This document shows, piece after piece, positions 45,175 to 64,000 of a stretch of DNA of 64,000 nucleotides. This DNA comes from Thermoplasmata archaeon (GTDB taxonomy: Archaea; Thermoplasmatota; Thermoplasmata; Lutacidiplasmatales; UBA184). The position numbers and the translations under genes are program-made. The notes under the pieces are model-generated. The model had not been told where the DNA came from. It saw only the letters and a program-made list of their open reading frames with translations, and did not search any database. The DNA is taken from the NCBI GenBank assembly GCA_021819135.1, contig JAKASE010000001.1, positions 75,375-139,374 of the forward strand, in the 5' to 3' direction. How positions within the stretch are numbered: the stretch's first letter is position 1; the number at the start of each line of letters is the position of its first letter.

Positions 45175-46997
45175 CTACATCTGGCTGACCGCCGCCTTGC
45201 TCGCGCTCTCCAACCGGCTTACCGGCGAGGGAAACCTCGCCGGTAGCCTCCCCTGGACCGATCCGGCTAAATAGGTGTGGGTCTTACGTATGACCCACAT
45301 GGCGGTCAAGCACAACCGCGGCTCGGGCCGCTGTTACCTCTCCCAGTGGCGCACCTACCGCCGAGACGGCAAAGTCGTCAGCGAGTACGTCCGCTACCTC
45401 GGCCTCTGCCCCGAGCACAATGCCGGTCCCTCCACCTCCGTCCTCGACCGCACGGTCCACGGCTCTTCCTATCGGGCGGGAGCGGTCCGACTGCTCTGGA
45501 GCCTCGCCGACGATTTGCAGTTCCGGGCCTCCATCGACCGGATCTGCGGCCGAGATTCCGACCCTTCCGAGCCCTCTCCGGGCCAAACCCTGACGGCCTG
45601 GGCCATCAACCGGGTCCTCGATCCCGCCAGCGCCACCCGCCTCGAACTGTGGACGCCCACCACCGACCTACCTCTCCTCGCTGGGGTCTCGGCGGACGCC
45701 TGGGCGAAGGACACCTTCTTGCGCGCCCTCGACCGGATCTGCTACGACGACCCGGCGCTCGCCCAGGTGGTCGACCACACCGCCGAACTCGAGGAGACGC
45801 TGAGCGCCGGGTGGCGGGAGCGCCACCCGCTCCTGAAGGGGACGAAGGAGGTGATGGCCTACGACCTGACGAACGTGCTGTTCTTCGGCGTCACCTGCCC
45901 GATCGCCACTCCGGGTAGGAACCCCGATCACCAGAATCGGCTCCAAGTGAACGTCGGCGCCGTGGTGAGCCGTCACGACCGGATGCTCTGGCGGCACTTC
46001 GTCTACCGGGGGAACCGGCACGGCGTGGGAACGATGCGGAACCTCTTGGTGGAGCTCCAGCGGGCCCAAGTGGCCCCCGGATTGCTCATCGTGGACCGAG
46101 GCCTCGTGGGCCGGGAGATCGTCGAGGAGGTTCGGGCGGTCGGCTGGCAGCTGCTTGGGGGGCTCTCGCGGAGTTCGAAGGAGGTTCGGGAGATCCTCGA
46201 CACGGCGAAGCTGCGAGAGAACCCCTCGACGTTCGTTCAGAAGACCCGAACGGGGGCGATCTACGCCGCGAAGGTCCGGGCGAGGCTCTGGAAGTCGGAG
46301 CAGGAGGTGGTGCTCTACACGAACGCGGAGCACGCGATGGACGATCGGGTGGAACGGGACCGTGCGCTCTCGATGATCGGGAAGGTGCTCGACACGCTCT
46401 CGGAGAAGGGGAAGGACTGGTCGGAAGGGAAGCTCCACGAGGCGATCGAGGGCGTGCTCGGGGAATCGGCGGAGTTCGTGAACGTCCGGGTGCGTCGGGG
46501 CGGGGCCACGCCGAGAGTGGCGTGGTCCTTTCGGGATCGGGCGGTGAAGGCGGCGGCCCGGCGGGACGGGAAGTACGTGCTGCTCTGCACGGACCCGGGG
46601 CTGTCGGCGGCGGAGGTGGTGGAGCAGTATCTGGGGAAGGACTTCGTGGAGAAGGCGTTCCGGACGTTCAAGTCGGGGATCGAGGTGGAGCCGGTGCGGC
46701 ACCGTCGGGAGCGGCGGGTACGGGCCTACCTGTTCGTGTGTGGGCTCGCGTATCGACTGGAGATGGCGCTTCGGTGGAAGCTCCTGGAGGGCGGTGTGAA
46801 GCCGGAGGACGTAGCGGAGTACCAGGAGCGGCTGCTGGAGGAGCTCGGACGCGTGGAACGAACCGAGGTCCGGCTGGGAGCTCAGGCCCGAACGTGGTAT
46901 CTGAATGTCACGGACCGCGTCCGGGAGGGGTTGAGGCGCCTCAAGCAGACCGGGTTGCTCCAAGAAGGGCCCGTCGCGACCGCGGTACCGGCGTAGG
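45175..46997 (+). mobile_element. IS1634-family insertion sequence with 9-bp target-site duplication TCATAGTAC
   Basis: Direct repeats at 45166-45174 and 46998-47006 flank a 1.8-kb segment carrying a single transposase gene. Confidence 0.65.
45290..46996 (+). CDS. IS1634 family (IS4 superfamily) DDE transposase
   Basis: MAVKHNRGSGRCYLSQWRTYRRDGKVVSEYVRYLG N-terminus and C-terminal YLGKDFVEKAFRTFKSGIEV (Y-x2-R-x3-E-x6-K) signature. Confidence 0.85.
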   Translation: MTHMAVKHNRGSGRCYLSQWRTYRRDGKVVSEYVRYLGLCPEHNAGPSTSVLDRTVHGSSYRAGAVRLLWSLADDLQFRASIDRICGRDSDPSEPSPGQTLTAWAINRVLDPASATRLELWTPTTDLPLLAGVSADAWAKDTFLRALDRICYDDPALAQVVDHTAELEETLSAGWRERHPLLKGTKEVMAYDLTNVLFFGVTCPIATPGRNPDHQNRLQVNVGAVVSRHDRMLWRHFVYRGNRHGVGTMRNLLVELQRAQVAPGLLIVDRGLVGREIVEEVRAVGWQLLGGLSRSSKEVREILDTAKLRENPSTFVQKTRTGAIYAAKVRARLWKSEQEVVLYTNAEHAMDDRVERDRALSMIGKVLDTLSEKGKDWSEGKLHEAIEGVLGESAEFVNVRVRRGGATPRVAWSFRDRAVKAAARRDGKYVLLCTDPGLSAAEVVEQYLGKDFVEKAFRTFKSGIEVEPVRHRRERRVRAYLFVCGLAYRLEMALRWKLLEGGVKPEDVAEYQERLLEELGRVERTEVRLGAQARTWYLNVTDRVREGLRRLKQTGLLQEGPVATAVPA

Positions 46998-47008
46998 TCA
47001 TAGTACGA

Positions 47009-50000
47009 GTGCGCTGTTCAGGTAGCAAGTCGTCTTTCATTCCCAACCTCTATCTCCAGAACCTCTCCGCCGACCGGCTGTTCACCTGGTACGTTACCCT
47101 GAAGGCGACCTACGACGAGACCGATTACTGGATCATCCACAACGCGTGCACGACCCGGGAGGGTGTGACAAACCTGGGGAACAACGTCGTCCAGGGTCCC
47201 GCGTCGGTCTCGATGAGCGGGGGATCCGAGGACTCGACGACCTTGACCACTTCGGCCCAGGTGATCGAGAAGGGTACCAGCGATGTCGAGCTTCAGTGGA
47301 ATAACTCCATGATGGCGGATGGCCAAGGGGTCATCAGCCCGTCCATGGGCGGTAGTGGCCTCTCCGGGTTCGTCTACCAGGCGTCCTGGAACGACACTCA
47401 CACGTTCAGCAGTGGTGTGGCCTACGAAGCCGCCGTGAACACTTCGAGCTATCCGGGAGGTTGGAACAGCTCCTGGAAGCCGTCGATGTCCGCCGCCGAG
47501 CAGACCTCGTCACCGGTGCAGGCCACGAACTCCGTGTGTCAGTTCGTGTATCAGACCAACACGCTCAGCCTCCATGGACTCGTGGGGGTCGGAGGACCGA
47601 ACGACACCGCGACGGTGACTTGGTGGGCGAACGGCTTCGGGGTGGGCGTGCTCGAATACTCGGAGGTCGGCACGTCGTGGAGCCAGACCGTGACGTCGGT
47701 CGTAACGACCGATTCCAATGGGACTGACAAGTACACGGCGACCGTCCACGGCCTGCCCGGTACCGCGTTCTACTCCCTAACGGCCACGACGACGGTGGCC
47801 GCCGGGGGATGCCTCAGTCTCTCGAACGCGATCTCGTCCACGGCGTTCTTCGGACAAGGGTTCACGCTGACGCCGTTCGCGTACGCCTACGATTCGATCA
47901 CGCAGCAAGGTGGCGGTGAGGGGATCTACGCATACCTGTCGCCCCAGTTGTATACCCTCTACACGCAAAGCACGGTAAGTTCGACCGGAGGCTACCTGGA
48001 CTACGGACCGGCCAACGACGCGGGGCCGAACATCACCATCCCCATCTCGTCGCTATCTTCCATCACCTGTGGAGGGAACTGCTTCCTGGTGAACATCACG
48101 CCTACGAGTCCGAACCTGAACTATGTGGTCCAGGAGACGCTCAACTTCTCATGGGACGGCGGATCGTACTCCATGCACAGTGCTCCGACGACCTTCAACT
48201 ACCTCTGGGACACATCGGGGGATGGCCTGACGGATGCGGAGAAGGTCCGCGGCTGGAACGTGACCTACCAGGACCTTGCGGGCACCTACCACACCCGCCA
48301 CGTCACGGCCGAACCCAGCGCCTTTGCGACCAATGGACTCGTGGGAGACTACGTGGAGAAGGAGTTCGGGCTCGACCCGGGCACGGTCGACACGGCAGGC
48401 AGCCACATGCTCGATACATGGAACCTAACGTTCAATCTCCAGCCGGCAGGCGGGAGTCTACCTACCGGCTCGGACCTCCGAGTCTGGTACGAGAACTCGA
48501 CCTACGAGCCGTTCGCGGCAGGTCTTCAGTATTCCCACGGGCTCTATGAGACGGGCAATCCACCGGCCAGCGAGCGGAACGCGACCAACATCTCCGCCAC
48601 GGGAGGCGTCAACATCGGGGACGGGAGCCCATGGGCATCGACTGCGCTCTTCAGCTACCCCGCGCTCGAGACATTCGTCGGTCTGTCCGGTGTCCAGAAC
48701 GCGGGCTGGCTGCGGGCCGTCGAGGGGAGCTGGCAGGGGATCCCGACCCTCACGGTCGAAGGGAAGCTCTCTTGGGGGGCGGATCCCCTGGCCGCATCCA
48801 CCCCGAACGACGGGGTTTCGGACGGGGCGCGGGTCAACCCGCTCTACGATGTCGGTCTCGAGTTCCATTCCGTCTATGCGAACCTGACCGGGCTCGGGTC
48901 GGGCAACGATGGCAATGGCTACGCGGTCGAGATGGTCGAGGGCTACACCGATGATGGCGGGAACTGGCGATACATCAACAACTACTCCACGCCAGCGGTA
49001 TACGGCAACAGCAGCTCCCACCATGGAGACGTCACCGACTACACCACCACGTTGCCGGTGGGTCAAACCCAGCCGACCCAGACGATCTCGCTCGAGGTGG
49101 CGGAGAACATCACTCCGGGCCAGGGGCCCCAGCCGGCCTATATCAACGGGAGCGGTACCGGAATCTCCGAAACGTACGACCTCGTCCGAGGAGGCAATTT
49201 AGTCGTGAATGTCGTCGGCTGGTCCGGGCACGGCGGCTACTCCACGCTCTACGGGGTGTTCACGGAGGTGCCGATGGGAACCAAGGCGCCGACGTGGCTC
49301 TGGGTCCCCACGGACAACTCGACCGTCAACGGTCTCCCGATCGGCCTCCAGCGATACACCGGCGAGCAGTCGTTCGACCTCGTGGTCGTGAACGTCTCCT
49401 CCTCGGCCCTCTCCTCCGACCCGATCCCGCTCCCGTGGGGCGGGACGACACCGACCGGGATCCCGCTCTCGGCCGGCCTGAACGACTTCCTGGTCCCGCG
49501 GGAGCAGTTCCTCTACTCTCCCTTCGGCCAGGCGATCTTCCTCGGGAAGAGCACGAGCTTCAATGCCTCCCAAGCCCTGCCGTTCAACGGCTCGATCGAG
49601 TGGGGCGACATATCGGGGTTCGGCAGTCCGAACCCGATGGTCGACCTCGGCGCCTACTGGCAGAACCGGGCCATCGCCTCCGGACCGGGGAACATCACCG
49701 GGTATAACGAGACCGGTACCGCCGCGGGCACCACGGATGCCATCTCGGTGATGGTCGGTCCGTCCGCCACCACTGCCAACACCGGCGGCCTCCCCTCGAA
49801 CCCGAGCCTCTACTCGACCGTCGGCGATCCCTCGGCCCTGCAGTCCATCGTCACCCTCAACATCACCAGCCCGGACACGCTGGACCTCCTCCTCGCCGCC
49901 CTGCTCGATAACACCACGGGCGGATCCAACGCGGTGAACGGTACCCTCGAGTCCGTCACCTACCAGATCGGGTTCCTCGGACTGAACCCGACCGTACTCA

Positions 50001-51064
50001 ACGCGATCCCGAACGGGACAGAGCCGAACGACGGGCTCTACGGACAACCGAGCAGCACCTGGCCGCCGAACCCGCCGAGCAGCCTCTGGGGCTCCTTCTG
50101 GAACGCGGTCACGAGCTTTGTGGTCAACCCGCTCGGCACGGTCCTGTCGCTCGTCAACACCGTGTGGGACGCCGCTACGGCCGCGTTCACGTACCTGAAC
50201 CACCTCGCGCACGAAGCGGTCGCGATCGGGGCGGAGGTCGTGGCGCGGACCGCAGCCGCGATCGTGCAGGCGGGGAGGGAGATCGCGAACGCGTTCGAGG
50301 TGTTCTTGAACTGGCTCTACACGCTCGTCAAGGACGCACTTGCGGTGGTTATCGACCCGATACTTAACGCGGCCCAGAGTTTCGACAGCACTCTAGCGAC
50401 TCGGGCCAACGTGACTGTGAGCGACCAAGGCTCACTCGGTTACGTGACCCCCGCTGATGGGCTAACTTGGGCACGGGCATTCGACCCAGTAGCCTACCTT
50501 GGGTTTGCATTCGCAGTCGGTATCACCATCGTAATCGGGATTGTTACAGCCGTCACTCTAGGAGCAGGGTTCGTTGTCGGGGTGATCTTGTCCCTCATTC
50601 CCACGCTCGCGCAAGAGCTAATCCATGGACTGGCGACAGTGACGTCACTCACTTCGAGCGCGGTGACAACTCTCGAAGATAGCTTCTCCAACTCGGTCTC
50701 GCAGACTGACTGGGAAGCTTTGGCAGGTGCCGTATCGATCGGGGCGTCGAGCTTCGACTTCTTCTTTGCGTTGGCGACAGCGGCGATGAAGGGACTCACC
50801 AACACCATCGCAGGTACCCTCGCCCTCTCCATCATCGTTGACCTCGTCGTCTTTGTGGTGAGCATCGTGAACTGGGCGAGTCATCTCGCAGACATCGCCA
50901 TCGCCGCCCTCTTGCTGGCGGGCGCCGGAACGTATGTCGCGTTCAGAGCACTGGGTGCGAGCGCGAGCATTCCGGAATTGAAGACTTACGCCACCGTCTC
51001 CGTCATCTTGGCTGGAGTGGGACTTGCTGCTGCCGGGGCCGATGTCCATCTGGCGGAGTCGTGA
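47009..51064 (+). CDS. giant (1351 aa) N-glycosylation-sequon-rich surface protein with C-terminal multi-TM domain; no recognisable signal peptide
   Basis: >70 N-x-S/T sequons, S/T/G-rich beta-like sequence, 6-8 hydrophobic helices in last 300 aa; GTG start 12 nt after IS1634 end. Confidence 0.6.
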   Translation: MRCSGSKSSFIPNLYLQNLSADRLFTWYVTLKATYDETDYWIIHNACTTREGVTNLGNNVVQGPASVSMSGGSEDSTTLTTSAQVIEKGTSDVELQWNNSMMADGQGVISPSMGGSGLSGFVYQASWNDTHTFSSGVAYEAAVNTSSYPGGWNSSWKPSMSAAEQTSSPVQATNSVCQFVYQTNTLSLHGLVGVGGPNDTATVTWWANGFGVGVLEYSEVGTSWSQTVTSVVTTDSNGTDKYTATVHGLPGTAFYSLTATTTVAAGGCLSLSNAISSTAFFGQGFTLTPFAYAYDSITQQGGGEGIYAYLSPQLYTLYTQSTVSSTGGYLDYGPANDAGPNITIPISSLSSITCGGNCFLVNITPTSPNLNYVVQETLNFSWDGGSYSMHSAPTTFNYLWDTSGDGLTDAEKVRGWNVTYQDLAGTYHTRHVTAEPSAFATNGLVGDYVEKEFGLDPGTVDTAGSHMLDTWNLTFNLQPAGGSLPTGSDLRVWYENSTYEPFAAGLQYSHGLYETGNPPASERNATNISATGGVNIGDGSPWASTALFSYPALETFVGLSGVQNAGWLRAVEGSWQGIPTLTVEGKLSWGADPLAASTPNDGVSDGARVNPLYDVGLEFHSVYANLTGLGSGNDGNGYAVEMVEGYTDDGGNWRYINNYSTPAVYGNSSSHHGDVTDYTTTLPVGQTQPTQTISLEVAENITPGQGPQPAYINGSGTGISETYDLVRGGNLVVNVVGWSGHGGYSTLYGVFTEVPMGTKAPTWLWVPTDNSTVNGLPIGLQRYTGEQSFDLVVVNVSSSALSSDPIPLPWGGTTPTGIPLSAGLNDFLVPREQFLYSPFGQAIFLGKSTSFNASQALPFNGSIEWGDISGFGSPNPMVDLGAYWQNRAIASGPGNITGYNETGTAAGTTDAISVMVGPSATTANTGGLPSNPSLYSTVGDPSALQSIVTLNITSPDTLDLLLAALLDNTTGGSNAVNGTLESVTYQIGFLGLNPTVLNAIPNGTEPNDGLYGQPSSTWPPNPPSSLWGSFWNAVTSFVVNPLGTVLSLVNTVWDAATAAFTYLNHLAHEAVAIGAEVVARTAAAIVQAGREIANAFEVFLNWLYTLVKDALAVVIDPILNAAQSFDSTLATRANVTVSDQGSLGYVTPADGLTWARAFDPVAYLGFAFAVGITIVIGIVTAVTLGAGFVVGVILSLIPTLAQELIHGLATVTSLTSSAVTTLEDSFSNSVSQTDWEALAGAVSIGASSFDFFFALATAAMKGLTNTIAGTLALSIIVDLVVFVVSIVNWASHLADIAIAALLLAGAGTYVAFRALGASASIPELKTYATVSVILAGVGLAAAGADVHLAES

Positions 51065-51067
51065 CAG

Positions 51068-51697
51068 ATGGGGCCGACGGAGGATTCGGATGCTCGGGAG
51101 TTTGATGTCGGCACTTTGAATGAGCAATCAAACAGGGCAAAGAAGGCCAAGCTCAAGGTGCTCGTGGGAGGAGCGGTGTTCATTGTCGCGTTCGGGCTAT
51201 TCTTCCTAGCAACTGATTGGACTTCTGCGATTGGTGGTACTCTTTCAACCGTGAGGCTCGCCACGCTTCTCATAGTCTTCATAATCGTTGGATTAGTCCT
51301 TTCGGCGATCATCCCGGGGATCGCGTTGACCCGGGGTGGTGCAAACCATGTTCGGATCGACGATGCCGGGGTGGAGTTCAACACCCTTTCTGGTAGAGAC
51401 ATGCAGATTACTTGGTCCGACCCGCGCTTATCAATGAAACTACTCGACTTCAGCCAAATTCCCCATAGGAGTGAGCTGACCGGCATTCGGCATGTGATTC
51501 GTATCGGCCGAGTCGAGACTCCTCTTTCGCCCGAGGCTTTCGACGAATTGCTTAAGCGCGCAAAACGCCACGGACTCGCGATAAGGAGTTCTCGTGCGAG
51601 CCGCTGGATATACCCTTCGGCGGTTGCCCCCATCGTGTACCGAGTGAGCGGCCGCTCAGGCTTTACCGTCCATTGGCACCAAGGAGGTGGGACCTGA
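51068..51697 (+). CDS. hypothetical membrane protein (lower-GC cargo)
   Basis: ATG 4 nt after giant ORF stop; two TM helices; GC ~52%. Confidence 0.4.
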   Translation: MGPTEDSDAREFDVGTLNEQSNRAKKAKLKVLVGGAVFIVAFGLFFLATDWTSAIGGTLSTVRLATLLIVFIIVGLVLSAIIPGIALTRGGANHVRIDDAGVEFNTLSGRDMQITWSDPRLSMKLLDFSQIPHRSELTGIRHVIRIGRVETPLSPEAFDELLKRAKRHGLAIRSSRASRWIYPSAVAPIVYRVSGRSGFTVHWHQGGGT

Positions 51698-51807
51698 TTC
51701 AGCCTTTCGAGCGCACCCCGACGGGCTTTGCCGTCGCGCGATTTGTGGAACGTGAGGGCCCGGTTTGGTCACGGGGCTCACGCGTAATGGTACGCGCGCT
51801 CACGTTC

Positions 51808-52802
51808 CTATGGAAGACTATCGAGCGTTGTACCGATAAGTCTGAGTCCTGCCTCTCCCTCGAAATCCCGAAACTTGGGTCGCGGCCGTATTCCGGTCGT
51901 CGAGGGGTTGGCCAGTCGAATCGATCGCTTCCCGACGTTTTTTCCCGACTTGTTTCGATGCGCCCACTCGTCGAGCTTGAGTGAGGGGAGCGCCCACCAG
52001 GTTCCCGCGGCTTCCGAGTAGAACATGAAGAGGTAGTTGGGACGAGGATTGCGCAACTCGAAAGCACTGAAGAAGGCTGCATCGCGCGGGGCCACGTCCT
52101 TTGAGCGCGCCTTGACCTGCACGTCCAGATACTTTGGGTGACCGCTGGGGTCCTCCCGTCTTATCACGCAATCAATCCCCTGGTCGTCCACCAATGTCAG
52201 ATAGACGTCGAAGCCGCGCCTTAGAAGCTCGGAAATCGCGACGAACTCCTGGCGCTTGCCGAACGAACCGGAACTTCGGAAAGTCCCTCTCACTTTCGAG
52301 CTATCGTCACGGTCGTCATAAGGAGCCCTCTGGCAACACCCCACATACCACCGAATCGCTGCGTCTGGGACTGGTGCGGCGGCCCTGGAGCACGCATCGC
52401 GAAACGGGTTCGCATGGGAATGTGAGCTCTCCCTTAGCCCGTCGTCTTCTTGGTGGGGTTCCCGAGTATGTTCAACATGTAGAGCCACCACTCCGATTGT
52501 GTGTTCTCCTCGAGTCGCTTGGCGGCCCAGACTGTATCGGTCGAGTGAATCGAGTAGAAGATGTTGAATCCGTTGTCCCTCAGATTCTCGAGAGCTTTCC
52601 AGGTGTTCGCTTCCCCTCGTCCATGGGAGTAGAGCCGGTACCGCACGTCTCCGGTGTGACCCACGTAGAGGGTGTGTTTATCACCTCGTCCCCTCGAGGC
52701 CGCGATGACGTAAGCGGCGGGTCCCTCGAACGGAATCTGACTTGGCTTTAGAGGCGAGCCGTCCGAATTGTACAGGGGTGCCCAATCTGACCAACGCCCC
52801 AT
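51808..52802 (-). pseudogene. GIY-YIG nuclease domain (52802->52434) followed, with a frame change, by Hjc-like PD-(D/E)XK nuclease domain (52491->51808)
   Basis: GIY-YIG: AAYVIAA...LYVGHTGDVRYRLYSH; PD-(D/E)XK: GKRQEFVAISELLRRGFDV...DDQGIDCVIR...YLDVQVKA; 58-nt out-of-frame overlap. Confidence 0.5.
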
Positions 52803-52920: not shown

Positions 52921-54654
52921 CTCCGTCAGTCCAGCCCTCGAGGACCCGCGTCGAACAGTAACCCCGCCACGCCGATGGCTCCGAGGAGGGACCGCTGTTC
53001 CTTCGTCATCTCCGTCACGAGCCGGCGACGCCAGCCCGTCTTGGCGAGCTCGACCTCGTTCAGCATGATGGTGCGGAACTGGTCCAGGGCCTTCGCTCCC
53101 GTGAGCTCGTAATCGCGCATTCGGACGTGCAGTTCGACCACCCGCTCGAGGAGATAGGCGAGCACGCAGAGGAAGAGGTGGGCTTCGATCCGTCGCTCGA
53201 GGCGGTGGCGGATTGGGCGGACCTCCAGTCCGCTCTTCAGCTCCCGCCATCCCTGTTCGATGATCGAGAGCCCCATGTAGAGACGGGCGACCTCCTCGGG
53301 GGGAAGATCGGTGTCGGTGGTCAGTACCCACCAACCGGCCAGCCTCCGATCGCGTCGACGGCCTTCCTTGAGCTTCGCCGTCAATCCACGGACCGTCGCC
53401 TCGTCCCACTCGATCTCGAACAGGTCGGAGAGACCCTTTGCCGCCAGAGCGGCGTGGGCCTGTCGAAGGATCGTGTGATGGTGCCGAGGCCGCTTCGCCC
53501 AGGCACGGCGAAGCTGGTAGAGGATCGCCTCGCCCTGGGCGATCCTACGCCCGAGGTTCTCGAGCTCGGTCTTCCGTCGCTCCTCGTTCAAGAGGACGAT
53601 GAACCGTCGTCCCTCTCGGTCGATGACCTCACGGACCTGGTTCTGCTCGCTGACGGCCACTGGCGGGAGTTTCTGGGCCTGGAGGATGATCTCCTCCACG
53701 TTCCGATTGACCTCGGCGAGCACGTAGTGGAATCCGTGGGCGTGGAGGTCCGCGAGGACCTCCTCGCTCTTCATTCCCCGGTCGCCGACATAGGTCCCTT
53801 CCTTCAGTCCGAAGAGCCGGGTCAACCGGTCGACCATCCCGATGACCGTCGTGTTGTCGGTGGTGTTACCCGGATAGACCTGGAGGGTGATGGGGAGGCC
53901 CTCGGGCGTGACGACCATGCCCCAGCTGACCTGAGGCCGATCCGCTCGACGGTCTCTCGAGTAGCCGAACTGGGCGAGGGGACCTCCCTCGCCCTCGAAG
54001 TAGCTGGACGTGAGGTCGTGATAGAGCACTCCCGAGGATTGGCTCATTGGGCGCACGACCCGTTCGAACAGCTTCGGTTCGAACCGGTCCTTCGCTCGCC
54101 AGAAGGCATCCATCGCTCGGTAGAACAGGTTGTCGTGCAACCGCTCGGGGTCGAGGTGGAGGAAGAATGGAACGGCGGTGGTGGGCAACCACTCGAGGAG
54201 ACCATACTTCGAGGTCGGATCGTCGAGGCGGTTCAGCACGATCGCCTCGAGGAGCGCCGCGACCCGTCCCTTGTGCGGCACTCCATTAAGCGTTTCGAGG
54301 GCGAGTTGGTGGAGTCCAAGCTTCCGCCAGAGGAAGTGACCGATGGCCACTTTGCCGTAGCTCCACGACTGACGGACACTGAGCTCCGAGAGATCGGCGA
54401 TGTCCCGCGGTCGAGGAGCCAGGGGGAACCGCGGGTCGGTGGCCAGCCATCGACGGAGGTTCTCGATCTGCTCTGGAGTAACCCGACCGAAGTTGACCAG
54501 GACCTCGGTCCGGACCTTGGTTCCTTCCCGGATCCCTCGGGCCAACTGAGCGTAGGTCTGCCCCCGAGGACGAACGACCTTGATGTAGAGGCCTCGGGGC
54601 ACGCAGGGTAGAGAACTGACGAATAGATAGAAGTATCCAACGTATTCGATATGC
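52921..54654 (-). mobile_element. second IS1634-family element (different from the first); possible 11-bp imperfect direct repeat GTTATCCTA(T/C)A
   Basis: Repeat copies at 52910-52920 and 54655-54665; AT-rich 54620-54680 terminus; no clear terminal IRs found. Confidence 0.4.
52926..54602 (-). CDS. IS1634 family DDE transposase (558 aa)
   Basis: C-terminal LYMGLSIIEQGWRELKSGLEVRPIRH signature; family-typical length; GTG start. Confidence 0.85.
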   Translation of the reverse strand: MPRGLYIKVVRPRGQTYAQLARGIREGTKVRTEVLVNFGRVTPEQIENLRRWLATDPRFPLAPRPRDIADLSELSVRQSWSYGKVAIGHFLWRKLGLHQLALETLNGVPHKGRVAALLEAIVLNRLDDPTSKYGLLEWLPTTAVPFFLHLDPERLHDNLFYRAMDAFWRAKDRFEPKLFERVVRPMSQSSGVLYHDLTSSYFEGEGGPLAQFGYSRDRRADRPQVSWGMVVTPEGLPITLQVYPGNTTDNTTVIGMVDRLTRLFGLKEGTYVGDRGMKSEEVLADLHAHGFHYVLAEVNRNVEEIILQAQKLPPVAVSEQNQVREVIDREGRRFIVLLNEERRKTELENLGRRIAQGEAILYQLRRAWAKRPRHHHTILRQAHAALAAKGLSDLFEIEWDEATVRGLTAKLKEGRRRDRRLAGWWVLTTDTDLPPEEVARLYMGLSIIEQGWRELKSGLEVRPIRHRLERRIEAHLFLCVLAYLLERVVELHVRMRDYELTGAKALDQFRTIMLNEVELAKTGWRRRLVTEMTKEQRSLLGAIGVAGLLFDAGPRGLD

Positions 54655-54768: not shown

Positions 54769-56049
54769 TCAAGCAGGTATCGGCCGAAGGGCGCGCATGG
54801 CCGCCCGCACCCAGTCTGCAGGCGTGAACCGGATTCCGGTGGTCCGTCCGAGAAACCCTCTCTCGCGCTGGTAGGTGAGACGGGCGACGCACTCATACGG
54901 GTTGCCGTCGACATCGGAGACGAGGGCGGTCACGGTGAACTGCTCCTGATCCTCGAAACCCCCCACGTCGCCCAGATCAAACGACCGGGGAGTGTTGGCC
55001 CGGATCCCCGGTTCGGCGAACTCCGACATGGTGCCTCGCCCCGTCGTGACCCGCACACGTAGGCCCACGGCGTCCATTCCAGCGTTGAACACGTCGACGT
55101 AGAGATGGTGGAACAGGACGCCCTGCCCCCTCATCTGAATCCGGATGTCGGGCCGCACTCGTTCGATGCGGTCGAGGGCCGCTCGCCGCTCCGCTGCGAC
55201 CCGGGCGGTTTCCCGATCAGCTGCCTGCTGGAGGGCTTGCCTCTGCAGCTCGGCAGCCTGCTCCGCAGCAGCCCGGGCTTCGCTCGCGATTCGGGCTTGG
55301 GTCTGGATAGCGTCGGCGACGTTCTGCAGCTTGACCGCGATCCCGGCCAGGCCCTCCGACATTGCGAGGCTCTGCGCCTCGATCTTCGCCACGAGCCTGT
55401 CGGTCTGGGATGCGAAGGTCCCGACGAGTCTCTCCGTCTCAGCGAGTCTCGCGGCGGTCCCGATTCTCGAGGTCTCCTCGAGACGGTCGATGAGCCGATC
55501 GCCGTCGGTGCGGAAAGTCATTGAGTTGTACCGCGCGAATACGGCGAGCAGAGCGAGCGTGAGCACGAGGACCGCCAGTTCGACGAAGGGCACGTCGGCC
55601 TGTGGGACGACGGAGGCGAGCCCGGCCCAGAGGAAGCCCAACAGACCCGTCGCGGCGATTCCAATCGCTAAGAGCCCCCACGCAATCGTTCGGGCCCTCC
55701 AGAACTCGTGTCTAGCCACGTGGTCGAAAGTGCGGCCATCCGGCCGCAAGGCGTCCTTCTCGGACTGGCTCCGCAGAACCGCAACGGCCCAGAGGACCAG
55801 GGCAATCGAGCCGCCAAGGAGCGACGCGACTACCTCGTTGGTTCCGAAGCCCTCTGGATCGAACTCCCGGCCTAGGGCCAGCGCGACAGCGAGTCCGGAC
55901 CACCATACCACAGGAGGTAGGACGAACCACAGGTCGGTTGATCGCCCGATCGAGCCCGGCCTGAGCAGGTAGGTCCGCTTGGTCGCCACCGGCGGTGACC
56001 GGGGCGGCCCAACGGGCTCGGCGCCCTGGGATGAGTCGCTCGGAGTCAC
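54769..56049 (-). CDS. hypothetical membrane protein: 4 TM helices + long coiled coil + C-terminal beta-rich domain
   Basis: 426 aa, GTG start; Q/A/E-rich heptad region (AQSLAMSEGLAGIAVKLQNVADAIQTQARIASEARAAAEQAAELQRQALQQAAD). Confidence 0.5.
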   Translation of the reverse strand: MTPSDSSQGAEPVGPPRSPPVATKRTYLLRPGSIGRSTDLWFVLPPVVWWSGLAVALALGREFDPEGFGTNEVVASLLGGSIALVLWAVAVLRSQSEKDALRPDGRTFDHVARHEFWRARTIAWGLLAIGIAATGLLGFLWAGLASVVPQADVPFVELAVLVLTLALLAVFARYNSMTFRTDGDRLIDRLEETSRIGTAARLAETERLVGTFASQTDRLVAKIEAQSLAMSEGLAGIAVKLQNVADAIQTQARIASEARAAAEQAAELQRQALQQAADRETARVAAERRAALDRIERVRPDIRIQMRGQGVLFHHLYVDVFNAGMDAVGLRVRVTTGRGTMSEFAEPGIRANTPRSFDLGDVGGFEDQEQFTVTALVSDVDGNPYECVARLTYQRERGFLGRTTGIRFTPADWVRAAMRALRPIPA

Positions 56050-56245
56050 CGGCCCCCCGGCCCTGTCACGACCGGGTGAGGCCTCCGGCGATTAAACTTG
56101 GCCGCCACGTGCGAGCATAGCGAGACCCAGAACGCGTCACCCTGACGACGGACGCACCTCTTGTACGGCAGTCCTTGCCCATTCCGGAGCAGCTGGCGGC
56201 TTTCTGGCTCGTTTCGAGGAACGGGTTCGCATGTGTTCCAGCCGG

Positions 56246-56632
56246 TTACCTTCGCTGCGGGTTCTTGGCAAGGTGGGCGTGGACCAGCGTCCCGTCGTCC
56301 TTGCGATAGGTCTCGACCCGATGCTCGGTCCCACGGTCTCGGCGCACGTCCTCTTCCCCGCGGTCCTCGACCTCCCATCGGCGGAGCCAGTCCAGATCGT
56401 CACCAGCGGTCCGGTGCAGGCCGGGGTTGTGCTCGCGCCCCGCTACGTTCTGCATGAACAGAAGGCGGTCGACCGTCGTCTTCCAACCGTCCTCCCGCAC
56501 GGACCGCTCGAGCGCACGGTGCCGCGCCTCGGCGCTCTCGTGTTCCTTCCAACCCAGTCGCTCCAAGGCACCGCGATGGAGCTCGACGTCCCTCGCCCAC
56601 TTCCTTTCGCTGCTTTCAGCCATACTGTTCAC
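56246..56632 (-). CDS. hypothetical cytoplasmic protein coupled to PrsW-like protease (first ATG at 56623)
   Basis: GTG 56632 abuts PrsW stop; charged 125-aa protein, no family recognised. Confidence 0.4.
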   Translation of the reverse strand: MNSMAESSERKWARDVELHRGALERLGWKEHESAEARHRALERSVREDGWKTTVDRLLFMQNVAGREHNPGLHRTAGDDLDWLRRWEVEDRGEEDVRRDRGTEHRVETYRKDDGTLVHAHLAKNPQRR

Positions 56633-57295
56633 CTATCCCAGGCTTACTCTCCCCGTCCAGGCGTGCAGCCAGGTCGCGTTGTCCAGATCGTCTCGCACGA
56701 CCGGACTGCGCCGGAGCAGGAGCATGATCCCGAGGACAGCCAGGCCCGCGGCGGCCAGCAACAGCAGCCCGGCCAGCGGGTCCACGAGGACATAAACCAG
56801 GGTCGCGAAGTTCCACGACATGTGGAGGGCCAGCCCGGCCGGGAAGCCCCACGGCCTGCCCCGCCAGGTCAGCGTGGTCAGGGTCGTGGCCGTCGAGTGC
56901 AGCAGGGGGTCGGTGGCCGCCCGGATCGCGATGAGCAACGCCAGCTCCCCAAGTGGGCCGCCCCAGGCCGACCAGAAGTAGAGGGCATTCTCGGTCGCAG
57001 CGAAGCCGATCCCGACGCCGGCGGCGGACGCGAAGTTCGCCCCCAGGGAGCCGCTGGCGAGGAACTTCAGGACCTCCTCGGTCAGTGGCCCGATGAGCAC
57101 CAGGGTCACGGTGGCCGCGATCAACGGGGAGACCGCGTCCTCGGCCAGCAGTTCGATGAAGAGGGCGGCGATCGCGACGGCCGTCGCCCCGAGAGCGATC
57201 CCCCAGTAGTTCGGCCGCAGCCACGCGACGAACGGCGCGACCAGGACGTACGCCGTCAAGAAGGCGTAAACCCAAGGCGTCAACTCCGAGAGCAT
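56633..57295 (-). CDS. PrsW-family intramembrane metalloprotease
   Basis: EExxK (LTEEVLKF), FxxxEN (FAATENALY), HxxxN (LHMSWN) motifs in polytopic membrane protein; ATG 57295. Confidence 0.7.
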   Translation of the reverse strand: MLSELTPWVYAFLTAYVLVAPFVAWLRPNYWGIALGATAVAIAALFIELLAEDAVSPLIAATVTLVLIGPLTEEVLKFLASGSLGANFASAAGVGIGFAATENALYFWSAWGGPLGELALLIAIRAATDPLLHSTATTLTTLTWRGRPWGFPAGLALHMSWNFATLVYVLVDPLAGLLLLAAAGLAVLGIMLLLRRSPVVRDDLDNATWLHAWTGRVSLG

Positions 57296-57449
57296 CACGG
57301 ACTCCCCACCAGGGGGCGTGGGCCCACCCGGATTCCGTGCGAGAACGGCCCCAGACCGTGCGTCGGGGCCGCTTTCGGGGCAGTGGATGGGCACCTACTA
57401 CCGCGATACAGTCCCACTTGGGTGGGGAATGGGTCAGGCGATGGTCCGG

Positions 57450-57809
57450 TCATGCCGTCGACCCGGGGTCGACCCCGGCCCCTTCCCCCTCGCGCGCATG
57501 TAGTGCTCGCGCGCCGGAAGCGTCAAGCGTCAAGCGCTCGGCGGTTTGGAGCCTCTTTCGGATGGATGCGATCAGGTTGGTCGTCACCCCGCGCTTGGCC
57601 TGGATCTGCCTGTAGGTCAGGCCTGCGAGCACGTCGGATTCGACCGCCTCTTGAACGGCGAGCTCCGCGGCGTCCGTCTCGGTCCGAAGCTCTCGAAGCC
57701 GCTCCCGGGCCGGTTTCCCGCGGGCCAAATACGCGAGCGTAGCCTTTGCCACGGCCTCGACGTCCCCCGCAAACTCCGGTCCCGTGAATTGCGCTTCCAT
57801 GTCCTGCAC
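57450..57809 (-). CDS. small HTH protein (sigma-70 region-4-like / LuxR-type helix-turn-helix)
   Basis: LAGLTYRQIQAKRGVTTNLIASIRKRLQ resembles LT.REIA..LG.S..TV; GTG start 57809 or ATG 57800. Confidence 0.5.
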   Translation of the reverse strand: MQDMEAQFTGPEFAGDVEAVAKATLAYLARGKPARERLRELRTETDAAELAVQEAVESDVLAGLTYRQIQAKRGVTTNLIASIRKRLQTAERLTLDASGARALHAREGEGAGVDPGSTA

Positions 57810-57917
57810 GTCGACCTCGATCTTGGACCCCGAAGTCCGAGCGTGAGGTACGGTAGGTCGGTCTCGGGAAGGGGGCCCAGGGCCCCGCGGCGATTGCCTT
57901 TTGGAGCCATCAGGTCT

Positions 57918-59600
57918 GAGTCTCCGACGGGGGAGTGATCCGCGTCTCCTCAGGCGCGCGGGAGGGTACCGCCCGGAGTTGCTCGTTGCTGGTAGCGACG
58001 AGCGAGGAGCCTCCCCTCGGATCGCAATCTGCTTCTTCTCCGACGGGGGAGGTACCGCCCTGAGGAACGAACAGCCGGCAGCGCCGGTTCACGCGACTCT
58101 GGACGTAAGATGATGTGCCGTTACGAAGCCAGACACGTTCCCGTGCGCGCGGAGCTCGCGTCCCAATGGCGGTGGCGTGAGCGTGTACGCCGATTCCTTC
58201 GCGCTCATGCTCGCGCCGTTCACGGACCCCGAACCCTAGCTGTGTCGCGCACGTGACGACTGGGGGAACCACGGTTACCGGACACCCGGACACTGGGTCT
58301 CTTCCGGTCGAGCGACCTCTCCTTGGGTGCGCCTTCGGGGCCGGGATCTCACCCTGCACCATGCACCCTTACACCGGGTCCCTTTCCCCCGAGCGAGCTC
58401 TCCGCGCTTGCGCGTTCGAGCCGGCACATCTTTCGGGATGCTGTCGGATCGATAGACGCTACCCGTTACTTGCTGCTGGCGCGCGCGTACCACACACACG
58501 CGAGGGAGGAACGGGTAGCTCGTCCGGACGAGCGGGACGAGAAGGGCGAGACGAGTCATTCCCTCGCGAGCACTTGCTCACACCGAGCACCGCTTGAGGT
58601 GTCGGCTCAGGTGGTCGAGGGGGAGAACGCTCCCTCGACCGTGGGGCACGGACACGGTCTGAACCCGACGGGGACCCTTGTCAGTTGACGGTTGAGGGTT
58701 CCGGCGCGCACGAACCACGCGCGGGTGAGGGGTACACGGTGGGCACTCGTCCGGGCGAGCCGGTGGGGACGCATGAGCGTCCCTTTGGAGGGGAGCGGGC
58801 CGATCGCGAATCTTGCCCCTTGCCCTGGGTCGGCTTCCTCCGAGCGAGCTCTCCACGCGACGCGCGTTCCGAGTTGACGTCCGCCGGACGCCAGGAGGAG
58901 GCGCGACGTTCGCAGTCACCGCAAGCGCGGGGAGGAGGGAGCGAACCATGCCCCCGCAAGCCCCTCGGAGCCCATGGATCGATGGTCAAAGTTCAACGTC
59001 GAGCGCGCGAGCACTACGCGCACGGGAGAAGAAGACCCGGGCGAGCCGGACGAGGACGAGTCACTCGGCCGGACGGGCAGCGAGTCTGATGCTGGCGTCC
59101 ACAAGGTCACAAGGGGGTCTCCATCCCCCGAGCGAGCTCTCCGCGCGACGCGAGTCCGGAGCGCCCTCGTCGGCCTCTTGGTTCGATGGGTGCCGCACGT
59201 CGGGAGGCGGCCCAATACGAGCGAGTACCCCGACTACGCGAGGAAGGCTCCTCCGAAAGACGTGAGAACATCCCTTGAGGACGAGTGGTTCCCAATTCCC
59301 ACATCCCGAGCCCCGGCGCGCGAGCACCACGCGCGGGGAAGGAGAAGGCGGATGGCACCGGGTCGGACGGGTTACTCGTCCGGACGAGTCGGCCGCTCGG
59401 ACGGGCTCACCGATCCCGCGCATCGTTTGACGTGGCGGGAGAGGTTGTCCCGGCGGACCAGGGTCCTGCATCCCCGGGGGCAGAGGATGCGATCCGAGCC
59501 GGACCAGTTCCCCAAGTGCTTGACGTTTGACGCTTCCGGAGCGTGCGAACTACGCGCGGGTGAGGGAGTAGGGGGGTTGACCGTTGACGGTTCCGGTATT
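57918..59600. repeat. GC-rich non-coding repeat cluster: 3 copies of CCGAGCGAGCTCTCC(G/A)CGCG..CGCG.GTTCGAG, 2 copies of ~50-nt TTGACG(G/T)TTGA(G/C)G(G/C)TTCCGG..GCG(C/T)GCGAAC(C/T)ACGCGCGGGTGAGG, several ACGCGCGGG/ACGCGCACGGG variants, and perfect 14-16-nt palindromes CTCGTCCGGACGAG
   Basis: Motif A at 58386-58420, 58837-58873, 59125-59160 (+ inverted partial 58143-58160); motif B at 58685-58733 and 59520-59570; palindromes 58518-58533 and 59384-59399; direct repeats TCTCCGACGGGGGAG at 57921-57935 and 58037-58051. Confidence 0.6.
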
Positions 59601-61171: not shown

Positions 61172-63036
61172 GTGCGCCGAGCAACCATGGAGACCAGCAA
61201 CGACCCAAGCTACACGGTAAGTCGTAGCGGAAGGCAGGGTGTCGGGGGAAACCCCGAATCTGAAGGGCCTGACCCGCAAGCTCGTGGGCCGAAGGAAGAC
61301 GAACCGACAACCAGCCTCCTCGCGGAAGGACGACCCTGTTCTGACGGGGGGAAGTCGTGTGTGGCGTACGGCGAGGAGGTGTGTGAGGTCGGCACGCGGG
61401 TATCGGGCCTCCATGGTGACCTCGGGATGCCCTCGGTCCTCCCGGCCGTGGCAAGGAAGGAAGCCTCGGGGTTGGGACCCCGATGGCGAATGGCCCGAGC
61501 TACGGGAAGGGTAGACCTCGTGGCAACACGAGGACGAAGGGACCAGGGTGGCAGAGGGAGCCGTAGTAGTCGTGACGGCCGGGGAAACCCGGAACGAGCG
61601 AAGGGCTCCCGGTCGGCCAAGGGTGGCGCGGAAAAGACCGGCGGAGTGACTTCCCGAGGGCGGGCACGGAATGGTGGGACGACCCATCCCATCCTCTACG
61701 GAGAGCCGCCAAGGGAGGGGAAGGGCGCGGAGCGCCCTCCGAGTCGGTCGAGTGCCATCGGGGAGAACCACCCATGAAGCCGCTTCCGAAGTGGACGGGG
61801 CAGAAGCATTCCTCGCTGATGCCCCTGCTGTTTCGGAAGAAGACCCTCCAGGCGGCATGGGAGCAGGTGAGGAGGAATGGAGGAGCCCCGGGGATAGACG
61901 GCGAGACGGTGGAGGAGTTCGGAGAACATGCGAAGGAACGGCTGTGGGAACTGTCGGAGGAACTCCGACTGCACACGTGGCAGCCGAAGCCGTTGCGTCG
62001 AGTCTGGATACCGAAGCCGGACGGCCGGAAGCGAGGACTGGCCATCCCGAGCGTGGAGGACCGGGTGGTGCACGCCGCCATCGCCATCGTGCTCTATCCG
62101 ATGTTCGAGGACGTGTTCGGGGAGGCGTGCTTCGCGTATGTCCCGGGGAAGAACGCCCAGCAAGCAGTAGCGCGAGTAGCGGAGAAGGGACGAGCGGGGA
62201 AGGAATGGGTCGTGGAGACCGATGTGGCCTCGTTCTTCGACACGGTGGATCGGCGGCGACTGGTGGGGAAGCTCGCGGCGAGGATCGCGGACGGGAGCTT
62301 CCTTCGACTGGTGGGCCAAGTCGTTCGGTCCGGCGTGCTGGGAGAGCGGACCACAGAGGAGAGTGCCGAGGGAATCCCGCAAGGGAGTCCCCTGTCGCCC
62401 CTCCTGGCGAACATCTATCTCGCGGAGTTTGACCGAGAGGTAGGGAAGCGCTGGGAGTTGACGCGGTATGCCGACGACCTCGTGGTGCAGTGCGCCACGA
62501 GGGAGGAAGCGGAAGCGGCCCAGGAGGAGGTGGAGTCCGCCCTCGGGAACGAAGGGCTGACCATGAAGCCGGAAAAGACGCGTGTGGTGTCGTTGCGAGA
62601 GGGGGTGGACTTTCTGGGGTATCGCATCACCCTCGGGGGCGTCTGGCCCTCGGAGAAGTCGGTGAAGCGGCTTCAGGAGAAGGTACGCTCCCTGACGCTG
62701 CGGCACGAGACGCGTCCGCTGAAGGAAGTGGTGCAACGGGTGATGCCCGTGATTCGCGGGTGGACGAACTACTTCTCGATGACCGAGCCATCTCGGCTCT
62801 GGAACCTGGGGATGTGGATTCTGGACCGAATTCGCCTGTGCGCCGTGAAGCACTGGTGGCGAGTGAAGTGGCAGAAAGAAGCGTCCTCCGCACGGCTGTA
62901 CGGGCTGGGATTGAGGCTACCGTATGTCCTCCTCAAGTGGGGCGCCCGATGAGGCCGAGAAAGCCGTGTGCGCTAAACGCGCCCGCACGGTTTGGGGTGG
63001 CGGACGGCGGGGAGTAACCTCCGCCTCCGACCCTAT
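61172..63036 (+). mobile_element. group II intron (~1.86 kb): 5' GUGCG, domain I-IV with IEP ORF, domain V (62961-62993), domain VI with bulged A, 3' end ~63036
   Basis: GTGCG at 61172-61176; RT/maturase ORF in domain IV; DV AAGCCGUGUGCGC-UAAA-CGCGCCCGCACGGUUU with AGC triad and 2-nt bulge; DVI GGCGGGGAG-UA-A-CCUCCGCC. Confidence 0.75.
61774..62952 (+). CDS. group II intron-encoded reverse transcriptase/maturase (RT + X domains, no endonuclease domain)
   Basis: RT blocks: RVWIPKPDGRKRGLAIP (RT1-2), FAYVPGKNAQQAV, SFFDTVDRRRL, IPQGSPLSPLLANIYL (RT5), YADDLVVQC (RT5 YADD); maturase X tail. Confidence 0.9.
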   Translation: MKPLPKWTGQKHSSLMPLLFRKKTLQAAWEQVRRNGGAPGIDGETVEEFGEHAKERLWELSEELRLHTWQPKPLRRVWIPKPDGRKRGLAIPSVEDRVVHAAIAIVLYPMFEDVFGEACFAYVPGKNAQQAVARVAEKGRAGKEWVVETDVASFFDTVDRRRLVGKLAARIADGSFLRLVGQVVRSGVLGERTTEESAEGIPQGSPLSPLLANIYLAEFDREVGKRWELTRYADDLVVQCATREEAEAAQEEVESALGNEGLTMKPEKTRVVSLREGVDFLGYRITLGGVWPSEKSVKRLQEKVRSLTLRHETRPLKEVVQRVMPVIRGWTNYFSMTEPSRLWNLGMWILDRIRLCAVKHWWRVKWQKEASSARLYGLGLRLPYVLLKWGAR

Positions 63037-64000
63037 AGAAGGGGGTGGCGGCACATCTCCGGGAGGTTTCGGCGGATCCCCCTTCCTTCCCGCGCCTTCG
63101 TGGGTCGGCTCGGGCGGTGGGGTGACCCGAGCCTTGACCCCTCGAAGGAACGTTCTCTTCTCCTTCCCGCGGCGCTCGGAGCTGACGCGGGGGTGAGCCC
63201 GGCGGATCGCGGCCGCGACCTCCCGGGGGCTGGGCGGCTCCTCGACGTTTTCCTCCTCCGCCACCTCGTCCACTCGCTTCACCACGTCGTCCAGGGCGAC
63301 TTCCCCCTCGGGATCGTCTACGAGTTCGTGCTCAGCGACCCACAGAGCCGGGTCGGACGACCGCACCCACTTGTCCGCGATGTCGACCGGGAGCGCGGTG
63401 AAGCGCCCCTGTTTCAGCAACCGACGCGAGGCGTCGAAGAACGTGCGGAAGATCCCCGCCCTCTCCTCGAGGAGCTCGGCGGCGAAATCGGGGCGCTCGT
63501 CCTTCGGTTCCACCTTGACTTCCCAGGCGACGAGAAGGATCCGGACCCAGAACGCCGGGGTGGCCCCGGGGACCCTCGGAAGGCGGTTGCAGGAGAAGAC
63601 GAGCTTCGCCGACGGGCGGAACTTGAACGGGTGCTGATACTTCCGCTGAGCCGAGATCTCGTCCCGACCGCCCGTGAGCTCCTGGACCAGACCGACGTTG
63701 CGGATCAACTTCCACGGAATGTCGCTGCGGACGTTCGCGATTTTGTCGGCGATCTCCGCGGCGAGGAACTTGTCGTCCGCGAGACCCGAGAGGTCGATCG
63801 CGGCGATGTTGTCGGTTCCGTAGACCCCGTTGAGGACGGCCGTGAAGGTCGACTTGCCCGTGGTCGATGGCCCCCACAGGACCAGCATCTTCCGCAGCGA
63901 GTTCCAGGGCCAGAGCAGATAGCCGGAGAACTCGAGGATCGCATCTCTCGTCTCGTGGTTCGGGAGGGCCTGCTCGAGGAACTTCTCGAATCGGGGGCAC
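62917..64000 (-). CDS. phage/plasmid P4-family primase C-terminal / D5-like SF3 helicase, 5' partial (continues beyond window end); C-terminal tail read through antisense intron
   Basis: Frame open to position 64000: ...FSGYLLWPWNSLRKMLVLWGPSTTGKSTF (Walker A) ...ELTGGRDEISAQRKYQHPFKFRPSAKLVFSCNRLP; residues after ~aa 284 map inside intron DV/DVI and RT ORF. Confidence 0.7.
   Translation of the reverse strand, partial: CPRFEKFLEQALPNHETRDAILEFSGYLLWPWNSLRKMLVLWGPSTTGKSTFTAVLNGVYGTDNIAAIDLSGLADDKFLAAEIADKIANVRSDIPWKLIRNVGLVQELTGGRDEISAQRKYQHPFKFRPSAKLVFSCNRLPRVPGATPAFWVRILLVAWEVKVEPKDERPDFAAELLEERAGIFRTFFDASRRLLKQGRFTALPVDIADKWVRSSDPALWVAEHELVDDPEGEVALDDVVKRVDEVAEEENVEEPPSPREVAAAIRRAHPRVSSERRGKEKRTFLRGVKARVTPPPEPTHEGAGRKGDPPKPPGDVPPPPSIGSEAEVTPRRPPPQTVRARLAHTAFSASSGAPLEEDIR

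Follow-up and report, generated by a model that had tools for sequence, protein, structure and literature searches.

A PrsW-family protease gene and its small charged partner in putative integrative elements of Thermoplasmata

PrsW of Bacillus subtilis (YpdC, MEROPS M82) is the site-1 protease that cleaves the anti-sigma factor RsiW, and the motifs described for PrsW proteins are EExxK in transmembrane helix (TMH) 3, a His residue in TMH5 and HxxxD/N in TMH6 (PMC4602095). HVO_0408 of Haloferax volcanii, an archaeal PrsW-family protein that can be likened by its description to the one dealt with below, is described as part of the H. volcanii proteome and not of a mobile element, with no partner of the kind found here reported for it and its function listed as unknown (PMC9263693). 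Here, we analysed a 64-kb stretch of DNA from a Thermoplasmata archaeon (contig JAKASE010000001.1), hereafter 'the window', in which a gene for a PrsW-family intramembrane protease (gene G) directly precedes a gene for a soluble, highly charged protein of 125 residues (gene H), and we compared it with loci that harbour related genes. To our knowledge, archaeal PrsW homologues have no known function, and literature searches on PrsW combined with archaea, provirus, prophage or archaeal virus yielded no paper that connects PrsW with a virus or provirus of archaea. The conserved pair provides a concrete candidate for a substrate or a regulator of an archaeal PrsW, and H is a specific candidate because its C-terminal tail occurs only next to PrsW genes.

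Three other described systems resemble parts of this locus. In the PrsW-containing polymorphic toxins (Zhang et al. 2012, PMC3482391), PrsW is genetically linked to a soluble polypeptide that follows it, in a setting of conflict or mobility, as in the G-H pair. Nevertheless, in those systems a hypervariable toxin is fused to the C-terminus of PrsW and immunity genes are present, whereas G and H are separate genes, the partner is conserved and there is no immunity gene. In the Pleolipoviridae, for which HRPV-1 (VP3-VP4-ORF5-ORF6-ORF7-VP8) serves as a reference, a same-strand run of genes for membrane or secreted proteins ends with a gene for a nucleoside triphosphatase (NTPase) of ~320-400 residues, and the elements described below have a similar run. 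They differ in that the pleolipovirus records examined contain no PrsW and belong to another host class, and in that the present element is known from its genes alone. Finally, Thermococcus prieurii virus 1 (TPV1) has a small open reading frame (ORF) that shares the core of H and also sits just after large surface-protein genes. Very few proviruses have been detected so far in the phylum to which Thermoplasmata belong (PMC13573593).

The PrsW-family gene and its partner

The segment of the window at 54769-57809 contains four ORFs, all on the minus strand and all with the codon-position pattern of coding sequences (GC3 > GC1 > GC2, the G+C contents of the third, first and second codon positions), in a window whose overall G+C content is ~65-70%. 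A preliminary description of this segment had suggested that the four ORFs, for a small helix-turn-helix (HTH) protein, the PrsW-family protein, the 125-residue protein and a membrane protein, could be one signalling module of an archaeal host, based on regulated intramembrane proteolysis with no sigma factor. The shared strand is borne out, as is the host: the window genes include those for EF-1alpha, LonB and an archaeal-type topoisomerase I, and the named homologues of G and H are mostly labelled 'Thermoplasmata archaeon'. The module is not, as its genes do not co-occur. Just two of the four, G and H, form one unit, and they stay together at 19 of 19 loci.

Gene G (56633-57295, minus strand) codes for a protein of 220 residues. 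In the ORF list it extends over 56633-57394, from an upstream GTG, but all 49 homologues have ~220 residues and the true start is thus the ATG at 57295. The PF13367 profile matches G with 29.8 bits (E 5.3e-7), above the curated gathering cut-off of 23.5, and precomputed matches to it exist for most of the 49 homologues. Twenty-two homologues sharing 49-94% identity were aligned, and the residues invariant among them are E73-E74-x-x-K77, F98/E102/N103, H133 and H158-x-x-x-N162. The earlier claim that all three PrsW motifs are present is therefore correct, with E73/E74/K77, H133 and H158/N162 agreeing with the published motifs (PMC4602095). The dN/dS values of G relative to its closest relatives are 0.16-0.18, and those of G and H together, 0.15-0.18, indicate purifying selection on both genes. 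No match to G was found among solved structures, NCBIfam models, PHROGs or PADLOC models, and neither PHROGs nor 50,697 records of phages and archaeal viruses yielded an intramembrane protease of the PrsW family. G also ends in a conserved cytoplasmic tail (LRRSPxVRDxLDxxWRxxPWTG). G thus shares with B. subtilis PrsW the PF13367 domain, a size of ~220 residues, a multi-pass membrane topology and the motifs, but it is archaeal, it belongs to the core genes of a mobile element, its partner is a soluble protein of 125 residues and not a sigma or anti-sigma factor, and no NCBIfam model covers it.

Gene H (56246-56623, minus strand) starts with the ATG at 56623, 9 nt past the TAG stop codon of G. 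In every lineage examined, a Shine-Dalgarno-like box (GGTGA or GGAGG) is present 5-9 nt 5' of the H start codon, and in most of them it overlaps the stop codon of G or directly follows it. The proposed tight coupling of the two genes stands, at 19 of 19 loci. H has 26 Lys and Arg and 27 Asp and Glu residues (42% charged) and no Cys. It had been suggested that H be checked for a cryptic transmembrane segment, but no hydrophobic segment was detected in its sequence, hence no cryptic membrane anchor, and no Cys motif either.

The protein is composed of a four-helix core related to DUF5771 (residues ~1-88), an acidic linker and a basic C-terminal tail predicted to form a beta-hairpin, with the consensus HRVxxYxKDDGxxVxxHLAxNPRRR. 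The DUF5771 profile (PF19075) gives 23.7-23.8 bits with H of the window, below its cut-off of 26.2, and is matched by 26 of 46 members of the H family, with a best E value of 3.1e-8. A literature search on DUF5771 found no paper. The AlphaFold2 model of H (pLDDT 77.5) consists of four helices followed by a small beta-hairpin. In Foldseek comparisons with the Protein Data Bank (PDB) it has no significant neighbour (best E 0.22) and matches no DNA-binding fold, while in BFVD it superposes on uncharacterized giant-virus proteins (probability 1.0, TM-score ~0.5, ~75 columns).

The H family comprises at least 152 clusters and falls into two length classes, a long form of ~120-130 residues and a short form of ~81-88 residues. 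The short form stops after residue ~88 and thus has neither the acidic linker nor the basic hairpin tail. Identities between H homologues range from 45 to 93%. The core (residues ~4-82) is also found in TPV1, with E values of 4e-7 in the phage collection and down to 1.7e-14 and identities of 37-48%, the highest identity coming from family members other than H of the window. The TPV1 ORF lies in an unannotated frame just 3' of large genes for surface proteins with lectin domains. Like the other short forms, it differs from long-form H by the absence of the acidic linker, of the hairpin tail and of a PrsW gene. At that place in TPV1 (JQ010983, ~18586-18885; L035, 5941-6240), the annotated coding sequence AFA44836.1, for a Pro-, Arg- and Gln-rich product of 182 residues, looks to be in the wrong frame; the DUF5771-like protein corresponds to an ORF of ~83 codons in another frame, which is followed by an ORF for a His- and Lys-rich protein of 67 residues.

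Long-form H is encoded at 19 loci, the window included, representing at least seven element variants whose PrsW proteins are 59-94% identical to G of the window. Wherever the sequence extends far enough, a PrsW gene lies directly upstream of long-form H on the same strand (19/19 loci, no exception), with gaps of ~6-18 nt between the called genes. Indirect evidence, from identical lengths of the longest contig in the two tables of homologues, suggests 14 further PrsW/H protein pairs, each on one contig. By contrast, short-form H has no PrsW gene nearby in four distinct contexts, namely L023/L024, L025, L033/L034 and TPV1. L023/L024 and L025 are virus-like contigs with one-strand arrays of at least 40 tiny unannotated ORFs, whose products gave a single weak PHROG match, to a DnaA-like family.

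The C-terminal tail of H was observed beside PrsW genes and nowhere else. At three loci (L004, 10369-10833; L007; L020, 7471-7932), the gene directly after H codes for a protein with an unrelated N-terminal region and the same C-terminal module as H (EDRRR...HRVxGFxRxVxGxRExVRPHLARNPRRR), which identifies the tail of H as a separable module. This portable tail beside PrsW is the strongest hint at a mechanism that the sequence data offer.

The two other ORFs of the segment do not belong with the pair. Upstream of PrsW, every other locus has an intact gene, F, for a P-loop NTPase of 321-382 residues with a Walker A motif GxGKTN and a Walker B motif IIDEFDQ. The C-terminal part of F varies between lineages, most having an HTH-like region and one a C2H2 zinc finger. 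In tblastn searches of all loci with the cluster proteins, the 119-codon ORF at 57450-57809, previously taken for a separate small HTH gene in front of PrsW, covers only residues ~240-375 of F, 28 more residues match in another frame, and the homology ends upstream, above ~57916. This ORF, although real, is thus a pseudogene fragment of F. It is part of a truncated and frameshifted 3' third of the NTPase gene (F', 57450-57919, minus strand), which amounts to residues 213/220-375 of full-length proteins of 375-379 residues; the gene breaks off near residue 218 (~57868-57916) and has a frameshift at ~57835. A search of the 119-residue product against HTH-family Pfam profiles matched nothing. Its single-sequence AlphaFold2 model shows three helices that form a unit predicted with confidence; in the PDB, this unit comes closest to the HTH domains of TrpR, LuxR-type proteins and resolvase, all with non-significant E values of 0.2 or more. 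Thus, an HTH within the tail of F is plausible from the model, whereas a free-standing regulator gene resembling sigma factor region 4 is not supported. As for the gene that follows the pair, for a membrane protein of 426 residues, the tblastn searches found it at no other locus with G and H, including those whose H is 93% identical to that of the window. The four-gene module was dropped on these two grounds.

Intact elements and their affinities

At the intact loci, the pair closes a same-strand block of genes, A-B-C-D-E-F. A is a membrane protein of 302-389 residues, B (229-586 residues) has a signal peptide, a variable ectodomain and a C-terminal anchor, and C (96-101 residues) has two transmembrane segments, while D and E have 250-314 and 136-152 residues, respectively. 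G and H are as conserved and universal as B to F; A is detectable less widely. Two to three large proteins are encoded ahead of the block, and in one variant a TatC homologue heads the run of membrane proteins (PF00902, 2.6e-28; L026, 526-1353; L029, 596-1423). In L026 to L029, the same strand runs on with small ORFs and genes for RecT, a tyrosine integrase, an HNH protein and a Prim-Pol/D5_N/DUF5906 helicase. Phage_integrase, RecT, HNH and Prim-Pol/D5_N are found together in L028, which thus carries its own replication and integration genes.

Outside the element, each locus has different neighbouring genes, and defence genes are common among them. These include Multi_ubiq/Prok-E2/ThiF/TIR genes in L001 (8938-11811), Multi_ubiq/ThiF/BubE with UvrD in L020 (13167-15061) and SIR2_2 with Endonuc_Holl in L003 (7075-10189). 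With replication and integration genes of its own and variable insertion contexts, the predicted unit has the properties of an integrative mobile element, and the analysis outlines an undescribed family of such elements in Thermoplasmata. ARAGORN called a 70-nt tRNA-Ala(CGC) antisense within the ORF of ~975 codons upstream of the block in L004 (3586-3655) and L007 (3607-3676); these calls are probably spurious. Two contigs with the element carry bacterial labels, L005 (JBAWFD010000098.1) and P0038/P0087 having been binned as 'Gammaproteobacteria' and 'Acidimicrobiales', which probably reflects mis-binning of contigs of archaeal origin.

Besides the gene order, a possible link with pleolipoviruses comes from F. 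In hhalign comparisons, the F profile matched that of the pleolipovirus VP8 NTPase with a probability of 81.8% (E 1.1e-5, ~120 columns). The other 63 family pairs did not exceed 2.7%, and the control, the AAA+ ATPase of TPV1, gave 0.3%. By BLASTP, F and the VP8-type NTPase matched with an E value of 0.29. Like F with its HTH-like tail, ORF33 of the pleolipovirus His2 has been annotated as an ATPase containing an HTH. Taken together, these features may indicate that the element is a pleomorphic enveloped virus or a vesicle-forming plasmid.

Possible roles of the pair

Our preferred explanation, a tentative one to which we give somewhat less than an even chance, is that G and H are a protease of the element's own cycle and its dedicated cytoplasmic partner, involved in envelope processing or in remodelling of the host membrane. 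The element would probably be a Thermoplasmata provirus with a membrane envelope, or an integrative plasmid, and is made of two modules in its intact copies. The first would be the one-strand, morphogenesis-like block, with its membrane and secreted proteins, the NTPase distantly related to VP8, with a putative DNA-binding tail, and the bicistronic G-H unit; the second would comprise RecT, the tyrosine integrase, HNH and the PrimPol-D5 helicase. G would be active as a membrane protease and would recognize H by its C-terminal acidic linker and basic beta-hairpin tail. We consider the tail a likely address to G because it occurs only beside PrsW and is also present on a second, unrelated N-terminal domain encoded downstream. 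H would then be a substrate of G, or else a regulator or adaptor, and the second tail-bearing protein of some elements would likewise be addressed to G. The pair would act within the cycle of the element and not in host stress signalling. We favour processing of envelope proteins or membrane remodelling since the pair ends a block of genes for membrane proteins and an NTPase and is conserved to the same extent as that block.

With no anchored substrate and no sigma or anti-sigma factors, none of whose families was detected in Pfam scans of the genes at the loci, the system does not belong to the cascades of the RsiW/sigma-W type. Likewise, without fusion and without polymorphism, the pair does not represent a PrsW-type polymorphic toxin system. 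The more specific proposal that PrsW acts on soluble proteins by way of a portable tail, in a new family of enveloped, pleolipovirus-like integrative elements, is considerably less probable, and we regard it as unlikely as a whole. If true, a tail-addressed PrsW would represent a mode of recognition not known from the bacterial anti-sigma pathway.

Several observations weigh against an enveloped element with a processing protease. The genes of the block have no similarity to VP3, VP4, ORF6 or ORF7 of pleolipoviruses in the profile comparisons (pairs at or below 2.7%), and the comparison of A to E with VP3, VP4 and ORF5-7 gave no homology. The element has no match in pattern scans of IMG/VR or in the phage and plasmid collections, apart from that of H with TPV1. 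The spacer between F and G varies from 37 to 252 nt, and G-H may thus be a transcription unit of its own with a role unrelated to morphogenesis; in this spacer, gene finders called a small ORF of 48-52 codons, which we rejected because it is not conserved between lineages and has no coding GC3 bias. Cleavage or binding of H by G is itself proposed from sequence and gene order. Finally, the presence of intact G and H in the otherwise gutted block of the window fits a host-beneficial role as well as a recent deletion.

Among the other explanations, the one that survives best is an element-restricted switch based on regulated proteolysis, in which PrsW would sense envelope stress and cleave H or a membrane-tethered protein of the block, and thereby control lysogeny and induction or expression. 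Stress triggers the founding PrsW, a site-1 protease (PMC4602095; PMC9263693), and the position of the pair in L026 to L029, at the junction between the structural block and small ORFs of early type, would suit such a switch. So would the occurrence of the H core among the small ORFs of virus-like contigs and the variable DNA-binding tail of F, HTH-like or C2H2. Some A proteins also have an HTH-like insert, with MarR_2 (E 0.086) as the sole Pfam hint, but this insert is missing in several lineages. Furthermore, H has no membrane anchor and matches no known DNA-binding fold, and no M50/site-2 protease is present in the Pfam matches listed for the called genes within ~10 kb at any locus, although a distant chromosomal site-2 protease is possible. 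We hold this switch to be improbable.

Still more doubtful is a host-beneficial 'moron': the pair would exclude superinfection or confer immunity, cleaving for instance a receptor or a membrane protein that enters the cell, and would have been kept after decay of the element. In its favour, the window copy has intact G and H genes with low dN/dS next to a truncated and frameshifted F. Relatives in the CPBP/Abi superfamily have been linked to bacteriocin processing (PMC9263693), and the elements lie in defence-rich neighbourhoods. However, the dN/dS of the F fragment is 0.19, close to the 0.15-0.18 of G and H, so that the truncation may be recent and selective retention of the pair, which we considered, cannot be claimed. 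Retention is not general, as L006 keeps just 45 residues of H, and the universal core position of the pair would be unusual for a gene of this kind. A known anti-phage defence system was also sought, and no PADLOC model was matched by G, H, F or the 426-residue protein.

Lastly, release or export of small effectors, with tail-bearing proteins threaded through PrsW or processed by it, would recall the proposal that PrsW domains are conduits and releasing peptidases for toxin domains (PMC3482391) and could accommodate the two N-terminal domains that share a tail downstream of PrsW, but it is very unlikely, given that G is a bare protease of 220 residues with no fused toxin, that H is conserved (45-93% identity) and not polymorphic, that no immunity-like gene pattern was seen and that the constant module is C-terminal here and N-terminal in the polymorphic toxin systems.

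The copy in the window and its surroundings

In the window, the only block homologous to the intact elements is F'-G-H (56223-57868, minus strand). With the closest intact element, L017, blastn aligned window positions 57868-56223 to 8728-10401, at 85.8% identity over 1678 nt, and nothing else. The block thus measures ~1.65 kb and ends 23 nt after the stop codon of H, and genes A to E are gone. On this comparison, we read the window copy as what decay has left of the 3' end of an integrated element resembling a virus or plasmid, with the two-gene unit intact. As a relic only, it makes the significance of the window itself modest.

This relic lies in an island of lower G+C content. At the left edge of the island, a tRNA-Thr(CGT) gene (35383-35455) is followed by a tyrosine integrase gene (35816-36742; Phage_integrase, 1.1e-21), both on the plus strand and together spanning 35383-36742; they were identified with ARAGORN, Rfam and Pfam. 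Past 36 kb, the G+C content drops from ~0.70 to 0.58-0.65, over at least 28 kb. No second copy of the 3' end of the tRNA-Thr gene, as expected of an att repeat, was found within the 64-kb window, beyond which the island may extend. A second case of decay is seen in L006 (9325-10138), from another Thermoplasmata metagenome-assembled genome, in which the 45-residue piece of H is accompanied by an integrase fragment and the same tRNA-Thr(CGT), which suggests repeated use of this tRNA gene as an integration site followed by decay.

A replication gene of the type found in the intact elements is also present in the island, ~5 kb upstream of F'. The 3' part of a gene for a PrimPol/D5-type replicative helicase (DUF5906, 1.6e-13) occupies 62917-64000 on the minus strand and runs off the edge of the window. 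Its product is 29% identical to the PrimPol-D5 protein of L028 (E 3.5e-13). In the near-identical contig L037 (99.95%), which confirms the arrangement of the window, the full helicase has 847 residues (gene at 1836-4379) with Prim-Pol, D5_N and DUF5906 domains. A group II intron (61774-63036, plus strand), with an ORF for a reverse transcriptase/maturase (RVT_1, 2e-36; GIIM, 7e-14) and a domain V-VI RNA (RF00029, 41.4 bits), lies on the strand opposite to the helicase gene and borders on its 3' end or overlaps it.

No coding signal was seen over the ~3.9 kb from the intron to F', a region that contains repeats of a DNA motif from the 3' end of F. Locus comparison revealed this conserved motif at 57493-57533 (minus strand), where TTGACGCTTGACGCTTCCGG precedes an imperfect palindrome rich in G and C. 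The 20 nt of TTGACGCTTGACGCTTCCGG are unchanged in L017 and L018, in which a few bases of the GC-rich part differ, and the GC-rich part alone occurs at the same position of F in L001, L003 and L007. Repeat, blastn and regular-expression searches identified at least 4-5 diverged, inverted copies in the non-coding stretch at 58366-59600 (plus strand), which has no coding GC3 signal. The blastn and regular-expression hits are located at 58472, 58685, 59000, 59313, 59520 and 59577, and the repeats were sorted into families D1 to D7; two other short repeat families occupy the same stretch. The repeated motif of ~50 nt consists of TTGACGnTTGACGnTTCCGG and the GC-rich imperfect palindrome, the arrangement also seen where F ends in the window and in L017/L018. 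These inverted copies could constitute a recombination or origin-like site, or they could be remnants of several F 3' ends.

On the other side of the pair, the gene for the membrane protein of 426 residues (54769-56049, minus strand) is separated from H by 196 nt, with a TTTAAT box before its start. Its coding bias and four hydrophobic segments agree with the earlier description of a membrane protein following the pair; its membership in the unit does not stand. It lies outside the homology to the intact elements and is a neighbour of G-H. The protein has a long helical region rich in Ala, Glu, Gln and Arg and a conserved, beta-rich C-terminal domain. Its family is rare (47 representatives in 1.84 billion proteins), and its sequences proved too diverse for a family alignment to be of use in establishing its genetic context. 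No significant Pfam, NCBIfam or PADLOC family matched it, the best PHROG match had an E value of 0.081, and pattern scans of the phage, plasmid, IMG/VR and JGI metagenome collections found no match. Just downstream of this gene, an insertion sequence (IS) transposase is encoded at 52926-54602 on the minus strand (DDE_Tnp_1, Pfam 4.6e-19). Three IS transposases were counted in the island, and its part at 35383-52802 holds genes for an IS630-like transposase (42029-43171), two DDE_Tnp_1 transposases, a SWIM protein, an orphan protein of 1351 residues (47009-51064), a GIY-YIG protein and an Mrr/DUF4365-like protein.

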